From: an uncultured candidate division Zixibacteria bacterium
Lineage (GTDB): Bacteria > Zixibacteria > MSB-5A5 > GN15 > FEB-12
Length of the DNA stretch: 64,000 nucleotides
NCBI GenBank assembly: GCA_963806185.1
Contig: CAWDXE010000001.1
Location: 832,001-896,000 of the forward strand
Reading direction: 5' to 3'
Shown: in pieces, positions 4,079 through 51,975 of the stretch
Layout: every line of letters begins with the position of its first letter
How positions within the stretch are numbered: the stretch's first letter is position 1
The notes under the pieces: generated by a model
What the model was told of the DNA's origin: nothing
Database searches by the model: none
Seen by the model: the letters and a program-made list of their open reading frames with translations, nothing else
Made by a program: the position numbers and the translations under genes

Positions 4079-4615
4079 TCAGGTTTCAATGGCTTCAGTA
4101 TCCATTTCAAGTTTACATCCACGTATGCCAGCGTACCAGCGACAGCTCGACCACTCCCACTGCTCAGCTGACTTGATCAACCCCGCCCTAACTGGATTAT
4201 TGTGACAATACTCGATAGCTTTCCGTACCTCTTCTACGTTCCGGCACGATTTGTCAAAACACCGCTTGTACCATAAACTGAACCTATGCTCGTGTCCTTG
4301 CTTGGTAGTAAGCCGATCAATCAGGTAACCGCCATGTCTGCCAATCTGAACGTGAATGCGCCGCGTGCTTTCCCTCTTGATGACTCCGATGACTCCCCCC
4401 AATTCAGTCTCTGAGGGAGGCACGATTACCAAGTGTACATGATCAGGCATGATCACCCAGCCCAACAGTGAGAATTGTGCGCATGCTCGTGCCTCGGCGA
4501 TGCTATCGACGACTGCCTGGCGCGAAGAATCGTTGGAAAGCAATGGAATCTGATGACGTGTGCCAAAAGTGACGAATCGAGCCCGTCCATCGTGATCATA
4601 GTGAGTCAGAAGCAT
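4079..4615 (-). CDS. rayT: REP-associated tyrosine transposase (Y1_Tnp, IS200/IS605 TnpA-like)
   Basis: N-terminal FVTF.T, HUH motif MPDHVH, catalytic Tyr in EYCHNNPVRAG, and W.WSS. Confidence 0.93.
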   Translation of the reverse strand: MLLTHYDHDGRARFVTFGTRHQIPLLSNDSSRQAVVDSIAEARACAQFSLLGWVIMPDHVHLVIVPPSETELGGVIGVIKRESTRRIHVQIGRHGGYLIDRLTTKQGHEHRFSLWYKRCFDKSCRNVEEVRKAIEYCHNNPVRAGLIKSAEQWEWSSCRWYAGIRGCKLEMDTEAIET

Positions 4616-9343: not shown

Positions 9344-10020
9344 AGGTGGCGTGGCGTCAGGCCGGGTGGCGTTGGCAACGAACAGCGTAAGCTGTCCGGA
9401 TGCCTCCCGACCTGATTGCCCACGTAGGTACTATTTTTCAAAGGAGTCTTCATGTCCCCCGTTCTTTCCTCCCCCGTCGCACCGTCCGCCCCCCGCGCCT
9501 CCCTGTCTGCTGCGCACGCTCTATTCTGTGGCTGGCGTACGTCTCGTGCGCCAGCCCTTCCCCCCCGCGTGGCGCACGGGACGTACGCCACGCACTGAGC
9601 TGAAAGATCGCCACGGCGCTCGGAAGCGCCTCGCGATGACGCGCAGGTAAATTCGGTGGCCATTGAGATCCTGAACCTTTAAGAAAAGGTTCAGGACGAC
9701 GAACGGGAGAAAGTGATTCAGGATGACGAGGGGTGAATCGTAGGTCGGGTTCCGAAGTTTGCCGCAGGCAAACGTAGAAACCCGACACGATGTGCTGCCC
9801 CTCTTGCTCCCTCTCCCTCCGGGAGTGGGCTGGGGTGACGGCCGGTGGGGCCACGAGTAGAACAAGTAGGGGTCCGCCAAACGTAAGATCGAGAAGAGAA
9901 GATGGCAAACCCCTTGATAAATGGAAAATGGGGTTTGCTCTACGGGATCATCGCAGCTGCCCCTCTTGCTCTCTCTCCCTCCGGGAGTGGGTCGAGGTGA
10001 GGGCATGTAAGTCGGGTCCT
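9344..10020. repeat. Intergenic island of mixed palindromic (REP-like) repeats
   Basis: Double hairpin at 9530-9595; GTC-tagged hairpins at 9600-9640 and 9666-9727 (- strand); GTAG hairpin at 9740-9788; two CCCTCTCCC..GGGAG.GGG elements at ~9794 and ~9956. Confidence 0.85.
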
Positions 10021-16761: not shown

Positions 16762-17160
16762 GTCATGGCGAGGCCCCCCCACAAACGTCATCGCGAGGCT
16801 CTCCCCCACAAACGTCATCGCGAGGCTCGCTTCGAGCCGTGGCGATCTTTCAGTTCTCTTCTTTTGTAGGTCAGGATCCCCGCTTCCGAGCGGGTGATCC
16901 TGACGCTCTGTTCAGCAAGGACGGCATCCCCACGCATACACACCGCTCGTCGCGCAGTGTCGTCCTGAGCGCCCCCCACCGTCGTCCTGAGCGCTCCCCC
17001 ACCGTCGTCCTGAGCGCCCCCCCACCGTCGTCCTGAGCGCTCCCCCACCGTCGTCCTGAGCGCAGTCGAAGGACGAGATAGTCAGCGTTAATGCGTGGCG
17101 TACGCCCCGTGCGCCAAGCAGGGTGAAAGAAGGCTGGCGCACGAGACGCACGCCAGCCAT
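16762..17160. repeat. Intergenic island of mixed REP-like hairpins with stuttered half-sites
   Basis: GTCAT(C/G)GCGAGGC x3 (16762, 16787, 16814); GTAG hairpin at 16867-16905; GTCGTCCTGAGCGC x5 (16959-17076); double hairpin at 17093-17158. Confidence 0.9.
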
Positions 17161-22295: not shown

Positions 22296-22660
22296 GGCAG
22301 CACCGATACGAGTCTTCGAGCGGGTGCTGCCGTCTTGGTGAGGTCAAGGAATCTTATCGGCAGCATCCGTCCGCTAAGAAGCGGACATCGATGCTGCCCT
22401 ACGACCCGCCGTCAGGCTCACAGCGAGCCTGAGCTACTGTGTTGCCCCTCGTCATCCTGAATCATTCCCCTAAATCGTCATCCTGAATCATTATTATGAT
22501 TCAGGATCTCACTGTCCACCGTGTCTATCTGTGCCGCCGCAAAGCGTCGCACTGAGCGCTAGTCGAAGTGCGATTGAAGGGAATGGGGAGTCATCGCGAG
22601 GCGCGCTTCGAGCCGAGGCAGTTTTTCAGTTCTCTCTTGTGGGTCGAAACCGCAGGGCTA
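22292..22660. repeat. Intergenic REP island, including an inverted GTAG pair (REPIN-like)
   Basis: GTAGGGCAGCA... (22292) faces ...TGCTGCCCTAC (~22402); CGTCAGGCTC..GAGCCTGAGCTAC; GTCATCCTGAATCA x2 (22451, 22477); GTCGCACTGAGCG..TCGAAG; GTCATCGCGAGGC (22590). Confidence 0.88.
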
Positions 22661-30310: not shown

Positions 30311-30792
30311 GTAGTAGGTCAGGGGCCTCGCGCCCCTGACAGAAGGCTGCACTGCGGCATCAGAATAGAACGTCAGGATCACCCGCTAAGAAGCGGGGAT
30401 CCTGACCTACAAGACACTTACTTCTCCCCAAGGTCATCCCCGCCCTCCCCAATGTCATCCCCGCCCTCCCCAATGTCATCCCCGCCCTCCCCAATGTCAT
30501 CCCCGCCTTGAGCGGGGATCTATCCTCGGCACCAATGCGCCAAGTGACCATCTCTGCACAGCGGGTGTGATCCATCAGCAAAAGAGAGCTGAGAGATCGC
30601 CACGGCGCGAAGCGCGCCTCGCGATGACATCATAGGCGGATTTCATCTGTATTCGCGTATCACGGCGCTCACTCTTCCTCCCTCTCCCTCTGGGAGAGGG
30701 TTGGAGTGAGGGCCAAGTACGCTGAAGCGGCCGGCGAACGAGAGGTACGCCGGCCATAACCGACCGTCAGGCTCGCAGGGAGCCTGACCTAC
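30311..30792. repeat. Intergenic REP island between the convergent kinase gene and lysS
   Basis: GTAG hairpins at ~30314, 30371-30410 and 30766-30792; 21-bp stutter GTCATCCCCGCC x4 (30433-30521); GTC hairpin at 30589-30628; CCCTCTCCC element at 30678-30714; GGCCGGCG..CGCCGGCC at ~30729. Confidence 0.9.
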
Positions 30793-32998: not shown

Positions 32999-33826
32999 TT
33001 ATTTGGCGAGGGTGCCGAGAGCGGCGAGGTAGGCCATGGAGAGCGGCTGACCATCCTTGTCGAGTGGCGCCAAGTCGGTCAGCCATGTCACCGGACTGAC
33101 TGGACAGAGAAACTGTTTGCCCAGTTCGGCAACGAGATGATCGTCGGCAAGCGCGCCCGTCACCAGGACGCTACCCAGCGCAGTCGGTAGACTCTCTCGC
33201 TCCAACGCCGTTGCCTGGAGATTTACCCATGTTCGCAGGTCCATGGCGAGGCGCGCGAGCAGAGTCTCGTCAGTTTCAGCAGGTATTGATACATCGCCTA
33301 ACACCAGCGGCTGGTCACGGTATATCAGGCACACGGTGGCGGACGTATCAATCTCGATGAGACAAATCAGATCAGCAGACGGACGGGTGCAGAAAGTCCG
33401 ATATCCGGCGGCGAGCGCCAGTCCGCGCGGCAGCACAGTCAGCTGCTCGTGGGCTCCGTTGAGACCGAGATGATTCGCGATCTCCTTCAGGCGACTCTTG
33501 CGGACTAAAACGGCAATGACCCGATGAGCCGGTGAAGGTTGTTCGAGCACAATCAGGTACGTCTCGAGCGGTTCAAGCAGAGACTGGGACAGTTCGAACA
33601 GGGTGCGCGCCTGCCAATCGCTGGCTTCCGCCAACCGAACGATCCTGACGAGTGCCTCCGACGAGGGCAGACAGAGGGAAATGGCAGTGACGCATTCATG
33701 ATCGACGGTGAGTGCACCTTGATTATTCGCCGTGGCCGTATCGAAGCTCACGAGGGAATCATCAAACCGGGGGCGCACCGTGCGCAAGGTGGAACCGGTC
33801 CAGTCGAGTCCGAGGCGGCCGCTCAT
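32999..33826 (-). CDS. Hypothetical protein, possibly PilM/GspL-like actin fold
   Basis: N-terminal LGLDW.GS.LR.V and late VLVTG motifs resemble PilM; overlaps the comEA stop. Confidence 0.45.
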   Translation of the reverse strand: MSGRLGLDWTGSTLRTVRPRFDDSLVSFDTATANNQGALTVDHECVTAISLCLPSSEALVRIVRLAEASDWQARTLFELSQSLLEPLETYLIVLEQPSPAHRVIAVLVRKSRLKEIANHLGLNGAHEQLTVLPRGLALAAGYRTFCTRPSADLICLIEIDTSATVCLIYRDQPLVLGDVSIPAETDETLLARLAMDLRTWVNLQATALERESLPTALGSVLVTGALADDHLVAELGKQFLCPVSPVTWLTDLAPLDKDGQPLSMAYLAALGTLAK

Positions 33827-34200
33827 CGATTCACCCTCAGATACGGCTTGATCTGCTCGTAGAGTTTCGGCCCGATACCATGCACCTCGGTGATGTCGAT
33901 TTCGCGCGCAAAGTGATGGGTGACGCGATATTCAACAATGCGATCGGCGAGTGTCCGACCGATGCCGGGGAGCAACTCGAGCGAATCGGCCGGGGCAGTA
34001 TTGGGGTCGAGCACAAACAGGCCGGTGAATTTGATGTCGCTATCGCCGAGTACGACCGGCAGTGGGGGCGGGGTCGAGGTAGGGGTGGCGTATGATCTGA
34101 TCAGCAGATAGGCAGTGAGGCAGAGCGCCGTGATGGACAGGACCATAAGGACGCGGAGTTGTGCCGGTGAGAAGTCGAAGTATCGGTTTATGCTGATCAT
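33823..34200 (-). CDS. comEA: ComEA-family helix-hairpin-helix DNA-binding protein
   Basis: N-terminal TM; D.NTA...LELLPGIG.TLA.RIVEYR and V.GIGPK. Confidence 0.85.
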   Translation of the reverse strand: MISINRYFDFSPAQLRVLMVLSITALCLTAYLLIRSYATPTSTPPPLPVVLGDSDIKFTGLFVLDPNTAPADSLELLPGIGRTLADRIVEYRVTHHFAREIDITEVHGIGPKLYEQIKPYLRVNR

Positions 34201-34365
34201 GGTATTCACCCGTGGTGAGGGGACAATATAGCGGAAGTGGTGGAAAAGGCAAATGGAGACATGAGGAGTAGTTTGCCTGAGTTGTCGTTCTGTGAAATAC
34301 AATACAAGTGGTCACTCGTTCCTAATATTCTGCAACACACGATCATAACACCCATCGCTCAACGA

Positions 34366-34863
34366 ATTGTCATTCCGGGTCGTGTAGAATCAAGCGCCAG
34401 CTTGATTCTACATGGCCCGGAATCCATGGGACCGAACAGCATTCACGGACTGTCCCCCCGCTCCGATCATACCTCTCTGCCGCCCACCTCTTCTCCCAAA
34501 TCCCGCCATTCAGGATTGAAACTATTGATGAGTTTCTCTTTCTCGGCGCGACTCATGTTCTTGATCTGCTTCTCTCGGGCGATTGCGGCACGGATGTCTG
34601 TTGTCTGCTCGAAGTACACAAGTTTCCATACGTTGTAGATTCGCGTGAAGTGAGAGCCGTCACCCCGGCGGTGTTTGGCCAGGCGCACCGGCAGGTTCGA
34701 CGTTACGCCGGTGTAGAGGGCCGTATTCCGACTCGTTGTAAGCATATAGACAAAGCAATTGTAGGTCACACGGGAAGAGTAATGGGCGGAACTGACAGGG
34801 GCCGTCAGTGAAAATTGAAGAAATCGACCCATGGATTCCGGACCTTCGGTCCGGAATGACAAT
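34366..34863. mobile_element. Candidate GIY-YIG element bounded by inverted GTC-tagged hairpins
   Basis: Outer 13-bp perfect inverted repeat ATTGTCATTCCGG / CCGGAATGACAAT and inner 14-bp inverted repeat CCGGAATCCATGGG / CCCATGGATTCCGG around a single nuclease gene. Mobility is inferred. Confidence 0.6.
34467..34769 (-). CDS. Small stand-alone GIY-YIG nuclease
   Basis: FVYML....N.ALYTGVTSNL..RL..H, FT..YNV.KLVYFE, AIAREKQIK...R..K..LI...NPEWRDL. Probable GTG start at 34769 (ORF track extends to 34862, into the hairpin). Confidence 0.92.
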   Translation of the reverse strand: MTYNCFVYMLTTSRNTALYTGVTSNLPVRLAKHRRGDGSHFTRIYNVWKLVYFEQTTDIRAAIAREKQIKNMSRAEKEKLINSFNPEWRDLGEEVGGREV

Positions 34864-34899
34864 GGAGGGGGCGGTTCGAGCCCACTTCAGTGAGGCAGG

Positions 34900-35436
34900 C
34901 TACCGCAAACCGAGCCGGGCGGCGTCGACACCGTCAGGCAGTGGCAACAGCTTCCCTTCGCTGGCCAGCAATGCCTCCAGACCTTCGCTGGTCTGGTTCT
35001 CGAGCGACTCCAGCCGATGCGCCAGCTTGCTGGAATAGATACCGAACAGCGGATGACGGCCATCTTTGCCTGCATAGCCGAGGAACATCTCGCCGTGGTA
35101 ATTGCGCACCAGATCGACAATCAATTCCAGCGGAAAATCGGCGGCGTCGGTAGAACCGACAAAGGCAGCCTCGGCGTTGGCCTGTTTCAGCGCGGCAGTG
35201 AGGCCGGCGATCGGTTTGTGCTCCGCGGCAGCGTCGCAAACGTGGGGATAGTTGAGATACCGCTCCTTCGCCTGATCTGGTTTGAGGACGAGCCAGACGC
35301 GTTCGAAGAGGGAGGCGTAGCGACGGTAGGTCCGTTCGAGCCGGGTCAGGTCGCCATCAGTCTGAAAGTCCTCGATGCAATTGGATTTTCCTCCGGCCAG
35401 GAGGAAGCAGGGCATCTCGCGAAACGATTGGGTCAT
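34900..35436 (-). CDS. MobA-like nucleotidyltransferase-fold protein (divergent)
   Basis: LLAGGKS, P.AGL.AAL and HPLFGIYS; lacks the usual RRMG.DKA. Confidence 0.65.
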   Translation of the reverse strand: MTQSFREMPCFLLAGGKSNCIEDFQTDGDLTRLERTYRRYASLFERVWLVLKPDQAKERYLNYPHVCDAAAEHKPIAGLTAALKQANAEAAFVGSTDAADFPLELIVDLVRNYHGEMFLGYAGKDGRHPLFGIYSSKLAHRLESLENQTSEGLEALLASEGKLLPLPDGVDAARLGLR

Positions 35437-37575: not shown

Positions 37576-37716
37576 GTGGGCAGTGACCGTTCTTCGATCG
37601 GCCCATGTCACCTGCTCGGAGGCTGGAATCCTCCCCTACAAATGAAAAGTGCGGCCGGGCATCAAGCCTGACCGCACAAGGACAAACTCTGGATGCCCGA
37701 TCAAGGTGGGCATGAC
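37572..37716. repeat. Small hairpin island between convergent genes
   Basis: GTGCGGCCGGGC..GCCTGACCGCAC and the GTC-family hairpin GGATGCCC..GGGCATGAC. Confidence 0.65.
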
Positions 37717-38583: not shown

Positions 38584-38770
38584 CGTCAGGATCACCCGCT
38601 AGGAAGCGGGGATCCTTACCGACAAGACTGCCTGACCGACAAGAATCCCTCGCGATTATAGATGTTAGATAATTCGTGGACAGAATTCTGATATGTTGTG
38701 GTTGGGAAAGGGGAATTCTGGACCTGATTGGCTTAATCGGAGCTTAAGCCAATCAGATCCAGAATGACAA
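38584..38770. repeat. REP-like hairpins between kdsD and lptC
   Basis: CGTCAGGATCACCCGCT..AGCGGGGATCC (copy of 30371 and 16867) and a long GTC-family hairpin at 38715-38770. Confidence 0.8.
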
Positions 38771-46557: not shown

Positions 46558-46588
46558 GAGATTCTGGAGCCTGCGGCTCCAGAATGAC
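46558..46588 (-). repeat. Solo GTC-tagged hairpin
   Basis: GAGATTCTGGAGC-CTGCG-GCTCCAGAATGAC; same family as 38715, 51865 and the GIY-YIG flanks. Confidence 0.75.
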
Positions 46589-51497: not shown

Positions 51498-51975
51498 CCA
51501 GCCCTCACCCCAGCCCTCCCGGAGCAAGAGGGGCTGCCGAGATATGCTAATACGGATGGAATCCGCCTACGATGTCATCGCGAGGCGCGTTGCGCGCCGT
51601 GGCGATCTTTCAGTCTTCCTTCACTCTTCCTAGTTGTCGGGCTTCTTGATCAATTGGAAAAGGAAGCCTGACCTACGAAGAAATGCGCCCCCACCAGCCC
51701 TCACCCCAACCCTCCCTAAAGGGAGAGGGAGAGAGAAGATAGCGTCAGGCCACACGCCGCTAAGAAGCGGCGCACGACCTGACGCAACGAACATGGGATG
51801 CACATCCCATGGATTCCGGACCGCTGGTCCGGAATGACAATGATGCAAAGGTTCTTCACTCTGAGATTCTGGACCAAGGGTCCAGAATGACAATGTAAGA
51901 AGCATGTTTTGGGTTGGCTCGCGCACGAGACGTGCGCCGGACAGAGAACCGGCCGGGTGGGTCCCGGCCGGTTCA
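51498..51975. repeat. Intergenic REP island ending in a terminator-like hairpin
   Basis: CCCTCACCCC..CCCTCCC elements at ~51498 and ~51695; GTC hairpins at 51574, 51806 and 51865; GTAG-type hairpins at ~51636 and ~51743; GAACCGGCCGGG..CCCGGCCGGTTC at ~51946. Confidence 0.88.

Follow-up and report, generated by a model that had tools for sequence, protein, structure and literature searches.

An Ssn-like GIY-YIG nuclease gene bracketed by GTC-tagged hairpins in a Zixibacteria genome, and its possible part in their spread

In a 64,000-nucleotide stretch of the genome of an uncultured candidate division Zixibacteria bacterium (assembly GCA_963806185.1, contig CAWDXE010000001.1, positions 832,001 to 896,000; hereafter the window), a short GIY-YIG nuclease gene lies between two hairpins in inverted orientation. 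The first-pass annotation of this DNA, made from the letters alone, read the arrangement as a counterpart of the RAYT/REP layout with a different nuclease fold and proposed that the enzyme nicks and spreads the hairpins. The locus raises the questions of what this protein is, whether it belongs with the hairpins around it, and whether it may account for their spread.

The two hairpins and the GIY-YIG domain between them were found as claimed (Table 1). The arms of the upstream (right) hairpin occupy positions 34835-34844 and 34848-34857, and those of the downstream (left) hairpin (34372-34395 and 34400-34423) are 24 nt long and 92% complementary, with the outer 7 bp of the stem matching the family. 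DNA folding left GTC unpaired 5' of both stems, both tags point away from the nuclease gene, and both hairpins lie within 70 nt of it and have the tag G and the C after the stem. The shared perfect inverted repeats were also verified by sequence comparison: the outer one (34366-34378/34851-34863) is identical at 13 of 13 positions, and the inner one (34414-34430/34828-34844) is 17 nt long with 94% identity and includes the perfect 14-mer. No Rfam match to a structured RNA was found at an E value of ≤1. Outside the left hairpin, on the comEA promoter side, about 110 nt (34258-34365) of lower GC content (43%) have no long match elsewhere in the genome and are absent from the corresponding empty sites of relatives described below.

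Table 1. Features of the nuclease locus and tagged hairpins in the window
Feature	Coordinates	Strand	Basis
comEA-like HhH gene, left neighbor; adjoins mobA-like gene in relatives	33823..34200	-	homology
Promoter-like site before comEA, undisturbed by insertion	34225..34252	-	1 found vs 0.7 expected by chance (weak alone)
Inferred cassette between two predicted cut sites	34364..34865	.	SsnA cut 5 nt 5' of tag G, by analogy
Downstream hairpin: GTC tag 34369-34371, 24-bp stem, 4-nt loop, C-CATGGG tail	34369..34430	+	sequence, DNA folding
Ssn-like single-domain GIY-YIG nuclease gene	34467..34769	-	Pfam, alignment, structure model
Upstream hairpin: unpaired GTC tag 34860-34858, 10-bp stem, 3-nt loop, C-CATGGG tail	34828..34860	-	sequence, DNA folding
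C-rich patch 5' of upstream hairpin tag	34864..34874	-	sequence; typical of tagged hairpins in genome
mobA-like NTP transferase gene, right neighbor	34900..35436	-	homology
Solo copy of upstream hairpin, 3-nt loop alone different	51806..51842	-	sequence comparison
ATTCTGG variant copy	51865..51891	-	pattern match
ATTCTGG variant copy	46560..46588	-	pattern match
Long-stem ATTCTGG variant, without C after stem	38715..38768	-	sequence
Three truncated left-arm units (21 nt each), then full ATCCCCG-family hairpin (30496-30520)	30433..30520	+	pattern; family of C6:151220 paralog
Truncated left-arm unit and full bulged ATCGCGA-family hairpin (16814)	16787..16847	+	pattern; family of C7:1009901 paralog
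Bulged ATCGCGA-family hairpin	9606..9640	-	pattern
ATCCTGA-family hairpin (9667-9700), left-arm unit on tag side	9667..9727	-	pattern
Left-arm unit and ATCCTGA-family hairpin (22477)	22451..22508	+	pattern
Bulged ATCGCGA-family hairpin	30595..30628	-	pattern
Single ATGCCC-type tagged hairpin	37692..37716	-	pattern
Bulged ATCGCGA-family hairpin	51574..51607	+	pattern

The nuclease frame matched Pfam GIY-YIG (E value = 1.5e-16) as its single Pfam domain and falls below 150 aa, with 100 aa counted from a GTG at 34769, upstream of which the sequence holds no clear ribosome-binding site. An in-frame ATG at 34832, inside the hairpin tail, would give 121 aa, the same length as database entry P0001, and from the sequence it is uncertain which of the two codons serves as the start. 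The frame and catalytic residues are intact: the conserved residues are Y8, Y19, G21, R29, H33, and E66, of which Y19 and E66 are invariant among 54 homologs and Y8 is conserved in at least 90% of them. The structure model is compact (pLDDT 89.8), and its structural neighbors are GIY-YIG proteins, with UPF0213 and Slx1 nearest; the best solved-structure matches were 1zg2, 1ywl, and Slx1, and a search of solved structures by sequence found only two UPF0213 proteins. UPF0213/YhbQ-like and Slx1-like proteins thus have the same fold, but the window protein is only 28% identical to 1zg2, and the UPF0213-type protein of this genome scores far lower against ssnA. The gene had been called lone, which holds within the window but not genome-wide, where we found six short GIY-YIG genes plus UvrC.

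A closer relationship is with the Ssn family, 94-aa single-domain GIY-YIG site-specific single-stranded DNA (ssDNA) nucleases classified as cd10448 (Chenal et al. 2025, PMC11893778). The family is defined by site-specific cleavage of ssDNA 5' of the hairpin, with no activity on dsDNA or RNA. According to that study, Ssn enzymes bind their GTC-tagged hairpin only in single-stranded form and cleave a few nucleotides upstream of it, four homologs cleave ssDNA beside their own hairpins, the 20-nt product of SsnA implies cleavage 5 nt 5' of the tag G, and SsnA requires the tag G and the C after the stem. The first-pass annotation knew of no demonstrated mobilizing enzyme for such tagged palindromes; the system is not new, since Chenal et al. 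characterized the family, its cutting 5' of the tag, and the RAYT/REP analogy; their Discussion calls the NTS-ssnA-NTS layout identical to an insertion sequence and likens it to IS200/REP systems as a hypothesis.

As a stand-in for Neisseria meningitidis SsnA, we used the Neisseria gonorrhoeae locus L008 as the tblastn query; it lies among NTS repeats and, by eye, holds the ssnA_F primer sequence of the paper. The ssnA-like frame at L008:580-600 lacks an in-frame ATG where its start is expected and may be broken in the strain or in the assembly. L008 matched four genes of the Zixibacteria genome at E values of 4e-27 to 1e-17 and 97 to 99% coverage, the window gene included (E value = 1.3e-17, 99% coverage, 44 to 46% identity, and 44% over 91 aa), compared with E values of only 1.9e-7 and 4.3e-4 for two non-Ssn small GIY-YIG genes. 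With L008 as the query, the window protein falls within the Ssn BLAST criterion (E value < 1e-10 over at least 75% of SsnA length), and its Y8, Y19, and E66 align with the catalytic Y6, Y17, and E64 of SsnA. A quick tree (94 columns, 58 of 112 forks open) placed it in a 101-row group with the Neisseria protein (SH-aLRT 90), apart from the UPF0213-like paralog. The hairpins do not fit the published SRM pattern, with two mismatches in the right one, three in the left one, and no match among 46 ATTCYGG copies. As a detector the pattern performed poorly here and was set aside, giving 47 matches in the genome against 26 to 32 in five Markov-1 simulations and none at the locus. Because just 42% of SsnA homologs carry SRMs on both flanks (PMC11893778), this mismatch bars the label SRM but not membership in Ssn. 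On sequence grounds, we assign the protein to Ssn and call the hairpins SRM-like, making the locus a further example of the known Ssn/CGTC-hairpin system; cutting of ssDNA about 5 nt 5' of the tag is predicted for the window enzyme.

In more general terms, the locus shares with the Ssn/NTS-SRM system (PMC11893778) a single GIY-YIG domain of about 95 to 100 aa with the Tyr/Tyr/Glu residues, the hairpin-gene-hairpin layout, an unpaired GTC tag, AT at the stem base, a C after the stem, and dispersed copies. It differs in that its 10-bp and 24-bp stems are off the SRM pattern, its protein lies outside the Neisseria simple-stem subgroup, four paralogs with four hairpin families occur in one genome, and its activity is a predicted one. 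The CGTC repeat superfamily was defined by Di Nocera et al. (2013, PMC3733652), who, in the available text, found no dedicated transposase or cognate enzyme. The TGTC variant of the tag, the AT first stem pairs, and the CCA tail are shared with those REPs, but their stems are 8 to 9 bp with loops of 4 to 5 nt, whereas the window hairpins measure 10 bp/3 nt and 24 bp/4 nt; with tag, stem base, and tail fitting and stem and loop sizes not, we did not file them in CGTC-tagged REP families 1 to 4. REPtrons (RAYT/TnpA-REP with GTAG REPs) also have a small gene between inverted tagged hairpins and many solo copies, but they combine the HUH/Y1 fold with a GTAG tag, whereas the window system combines the GIY-YIG fold with a GTC tag. 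A REPtron assignment was rejected, as the HUH/Y1 domain is absent, Pfam gives GIY-YIG only, and six Y1_Tnp matches lie elsewhere.

The association of nuclease and hairpins extends to homologs of the protein. Among 80 homolog loci, of which 13 are Chryseobacterium at two sites and not independent, we counted the 76 with 200 nt on both sides and dropped four. Tagged hairpins occurred on both flanks in 57 of the 76 and on either side in 69, against 4 of 188 distal control windows, and none of the other 63 tags exceeded 4 of 76; these counts come from a relaxed detector set after bulged hairpins had been seen, and the earlier strict-stem detector that it replaced, which missed bulged hairpins, gave 9 of 76 on both flanks against 1 of 188 in the control. 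The nearest tags pointed outward in 49 of 60 cases upstream and 51 of 66 downstream. The enrichment of flanking hairpins that the first-pass annotation had proposed to look for is therefore present, and the RAYT/REP-like layout of a nuclease of different fold with GTC hairpins is real and general, as seen in these loci and in four bracketed paralogs of this genome.

Within the 3.65-Mb assembly, the ATTCCGG and ATTCTGG families gave 22 and 27 regex matches and 46 distinct full hairpins. They are not chance occurrences, since the same regex had no match in any of three Markov-2 simulations. In the window, the solo copy was confirmed to equal the right hairpin except in its 3-nt loop. The reported stem-variant copies at 38715, 46558, and 51865 are present with an unpaired GTC tag, with the correction that the first has T, not C, after the stem; the more distant GTC-tagged families are likewise present with GTC unpaired, with the further correction that the first stem base of the copy at 9667 is G. 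A loose pan-family hairpin pattern run over 41 genomes returned mostly background and was not used.

Four Ssn-like genes (C1:760886, C1:866536, C6:151220, and C7:1009901), 38 to 58% identical, occur in this genome, and each is bracketed, tags outward, by its own hairpin family: ATTCCGG at the window gene, AYCCCCG, a bulged ATTGCGAGGC family, and a CTC-tagged bulged form. No GIY-YIG gene of the assembly other than the window gene has ATTCCGG-family hairpins at its flanks. For the ATCCTGA family (23 full copies), no cognate flanked nuclease gene was found in the 82%-complete assembly. The CTC-tagged hairpins, which flank paralog L001 (C1:760721-761251) in place of GTC-tagged ones and have 11 pattern matches genome-wide, are a natural tag-specificity variant. 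Downstream of the UPF0213-like GIY-YIG paralog L002 (C5:47759-48390) lies a GTC-tagged ACCCTGAG...CGAAGG hairpin from a family of about 10 copies, so that such hairpins may not be confined to the Ssn clade. An 88-aa GIY-YIG gene (C5:189656-190060) immediately follows tRNA-Met and is itself followed by a degenerate copy of a tRNA 3' half with a small hairpin. BIME/NIME-like arrays lie at C5:35670-36050 and C7:890095-890454: mosaic clusters with head-to-tail alternation of several hairpin families, and four 111-nt tandem units, each with an ATTCTGG hairpin.

In the quick tree of 116 rows, the rows with simple-stem hairpins come together in one group of 26 that also contains the Neisseria protein (support 87); outside it, bulged hairpins predominate. 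Over the 95 rows with either label (FastTree), hairpin type changes 5 times, against at least 18 in 500 shuffles, although kin share labels and the small number of changes is therefore not proof of coevolution. The window protein departs from this pattern. It falls outside the subgroup with simple stems, its tree neighbors are homologs flanked by bulged ATTGCGAG hairpins, and it groups with the paralogs L001 and L006 (SH-aLRT 85, weak), both of the bulged type, yet its own hairpins are perfect stemmed. It also has no counterpart of a tryptophan found in 21 of 24 simple-stem-associated proteins. Given these neighbors and the absent tryptophan, its fit to its own hairpins is only putative, and either specificity has switched or the gene is a passenger. 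As a passenger, the gene would belong to the bulged-hairpin (ATTGCGAG) lineage, cut that family or nothing, and have landed between ATTCCGG hairpins maintained by a paralog such as that at C6:151220; its tree position, the rarity of hairpin-type changes, and the lack of a clear ribosome-binding site ahead of the GTG all fit. However, both flanks carry the same family in the canonical outward orientation, no other GIY-YIG gene is flanked by that family, and the ATTCYGG pattern has 45 matches here against 0 to 10 in 40 relatives. With an intact frame and catalytic residues in addition, we regard the passenger account as rather improbable.

We then considered whether the cassette has moved. It follows the mobA stop and precedes the comEA promoter-like site. 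Among 40 relatives, 21 had a mobA-like match and 8 had comEA adjoining mobA, and in all eight of these syntenic same-family relatives the GIY-YIG gene was absent, with gaps of 85 to 223 nt compared with 711 nt here and, by eye, similar -35/-10 text. The empty mobA-comEA site that had been anticipated in related genomes was therefore found, and the cassette likely was inserted between the two genes; as the relatives are other genera and too diverged, the gene could instead have been lost from them, and no junction or target duplication is readable. Three sequencing runs with a 5 to 7% word share yielded scattered short pieces, in which no joint and no empty allele was seen. Elsewhere, one Chryseobacterium site classed by eye in the best 30 of 79 matching genomes was filled in 12, empty in 10, and in 8 held solo, collapsed, or decayed ends, with 0 to 17 nt between the host stop codon and the tag. 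Chryseobacterium site A was filled in 9 of 30 genomes, and the other 21 have different upstream DNA, so that there is no clean empty allele. At three Chryseobacterium loci (L198, L188, and L072), the cassette separates two overlapping genes, with about 16 nt of the overlap, judged by eye, on both sides of it; this could possibly be an insertion-linked duplication.

Copy number follows the nuclease loosely. The median number of hairpins per relative was 23 in the 17 genomes with an Ssn-like gene and 6 in the 23 without, and at least 10 hairpins were present in 16 of the 17 with an Ssn match at an E value of ≤1e-14 against 7 of the 23 without, the latter reaching 73, in a set of 40 relatives in which kin are not independent and several assemblies are fragmented. 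The medians count in favor of the cassette spreading its hairpins, and those seven genomes count against it. Three of the eight relatives holding the ATTCYGG family have no Ssn match. A blastn search of 34201-34900 against the genome returned hairpin-sized matches only and no further cassette copies; deleted, MITE-like copies were also not found, a hairpin at C5:35988 resembling the left one having no nuclease frame next to it.

The neighboring comEA-like gene suggests another role, in which the enzyme would be a domesticated restriction factor that cuts incoming hairpin-bearing ssDNA and tunes natural transformation, the hairpins multiplying by host slippage or recombination and the gene moving passively by homologous recombination between hairpins. 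For the family as a whole, the one function established in vivo is the lowering of natural transformation by SsnA in N. meningitidis (PMC11893778), and tagged hairpins do cluster here, 92 of 168 having another within 300 nt. The comEA link, however, is not conserved, the nuclease being present there in none of the eight syntenic relatives.

A further difficulty for restriction with passive spread comes from a recurrent asymmetry around the hairpins. Among 159 full hairpins in the genome, 45 are preceded on the tag side, at a distance of up to 45 nt, by a truncated repeat of the tag and left arm, with C-rich filler in between; the mirror feature, a right-arm copy on the tail side, occurs in none. 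Arm-only 7-mers gave the same picture (37 of 159 on the tag side and 1 of 159 on the other), and untagged control hairpins were symmetric (4 versus 2 of 167). The duplicated unit is mostly 2 to 8 nt shorter than the hairpin of its family and ends at the arm end or the loop; C makes up 64% of the filler, which seldom recurs (42 distinct sequences in 45 cases). Examples in the window lie at 30433, 16787, 22451, and 9727, and the feature is rare in the window gene's own family (5 of 46). At the 80 homolog loci, duplications were one-sided at 37 versus 2 of 326 hairpins, about 5 of the 37 being decayed full hairpins, and at 16 versus 2 of 75 loci; by eye, two substrate oligonucleotides in PMC11893778 have the same shape. 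Plain slippage should not be one-sided and does not readily explain mostly unique fillers, and we consider domesticated restriction with passive spread unlikely. In this genome, positions -5 to -12 form a pronounced C/T-rich patch (Y fraction of 0.69 versus 0.48 for solo copies), but the patch is weak or absent at the 80 homolog loci and was discarded as a universal feature. PolX and Ku, as sources of non-templated filler, were not found in the genome.

The duplicated side coincides with the cut side, which fits nick-primed resynthesis. For the window locus, the 20-nt product and the NTS75 oligonucleotide of PMC11893778, applied to its coordinates, predict cuts at 34363/34364 on the plus strand and 34866/34865 on the minus strand, which would bound the cassette. 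We favor, as probable, spreading by Ssn nicking and host repair. The enzyme would cut ssDNA about 5 nt 5' of the tag and leave a 3'-OH, and host polymerase and ligase would repair the nick, the enzyme having no joining chemistry of its own. In some cases the repair synthesis would copy the tag and the left arm a second time and stop at the loop, which would account for the one-sided duplications and their C-rich filler; less often, a hairpin or even the entire cassette would end up in a new place. On this view, the cassette would be a minimal selfish element, itself the source of its hairpin family. Alternatively, the C-rich flanks could mark survivors that resist cutting rather than repair filler. 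Of the original proposal that the enzyme nicks and spreads GTC hairpins, nicking is supported by homology, as Ssn enzymes cut ssDNA 5' of the tag (PMC11893778), and spreading is what we infer from the empty sites, the copy-number trend, and the one-sided duplications.

A different enzyme might supply the mobility in trans. To our knowledge, GIY-YIG enzymes have no covalent tyrosine intermediate and no strand transfer, and a hydrolytic nuclease of this kind cannot by itself rejoin DNA. An HUH enzyme of the RAYT/IS200 type, or an IS110-type enzyme, might accordingly move the hairpins with the GIY-YIG gene as cargo; six Y1_Tnp genes are present in the genome, and a phage recombinase is reported to target dRS3 in Neisseria (PMC1797815). 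The six Y1/RAYT-like genes, however, have their own unrelated repeat families, none with a catalogued GTC-family copy within 660 nt of its midpoint, and the two matches of the relaxed detector at one of the six belong to no such family. IS110-type transposase (PF02371) was not found in the 82%-complete assembly, and the available text of Di Nocera et al. (2013, PMC3733652) reports no tyrosine transposase flanked by CGTC repeats. Mobilization in trans is thus very improbable. One RAYT/Y1_Tnp-like gene in the window (4079-4615, minus strand) sits inside tandem arrays, on both sides, of a repeat of about 60 nt with a GTAC-ended hairpin.

Returning to nicking and host repair, we also offer, much more tentatively, a broader version in which Ssn cassettes are transposase-free selfish elements. 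Nicking 5' of the GTC tag and host repriming at the hairpin loop would leave a one-sided scar, a unit about 5 nt short with variable C-rich filler on the cut side only; the four paralogs with four families would reflect diversification, and the window enzyme would have switched from bulged hairpins to a new perfect-stem family that then reached 46 copies.

PMC11893778 raises Ssn-driven spread of CGTC-type repeats as a hypothesis and no more. No mobility test is described in its main text, which also lacks the words "empty" and "tandem," and the searched supplements gave no per-substrate cleavage values for NTS1-5; a literature search, with subscription papers mostly outside its coverage, found no further papers on Ssn mobility or left-arm duplications. 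Empty sites and one-sided duplications provide a sequence readout that makes Ssn-driven spread directly testable. The published SRM pattern misses most of the four hairpin families; together with their four paralogs, these offer a ready matrix for comparing specificities, which could provide new ssDNA cutters with site specificity and reveal how switches in recognition come about.
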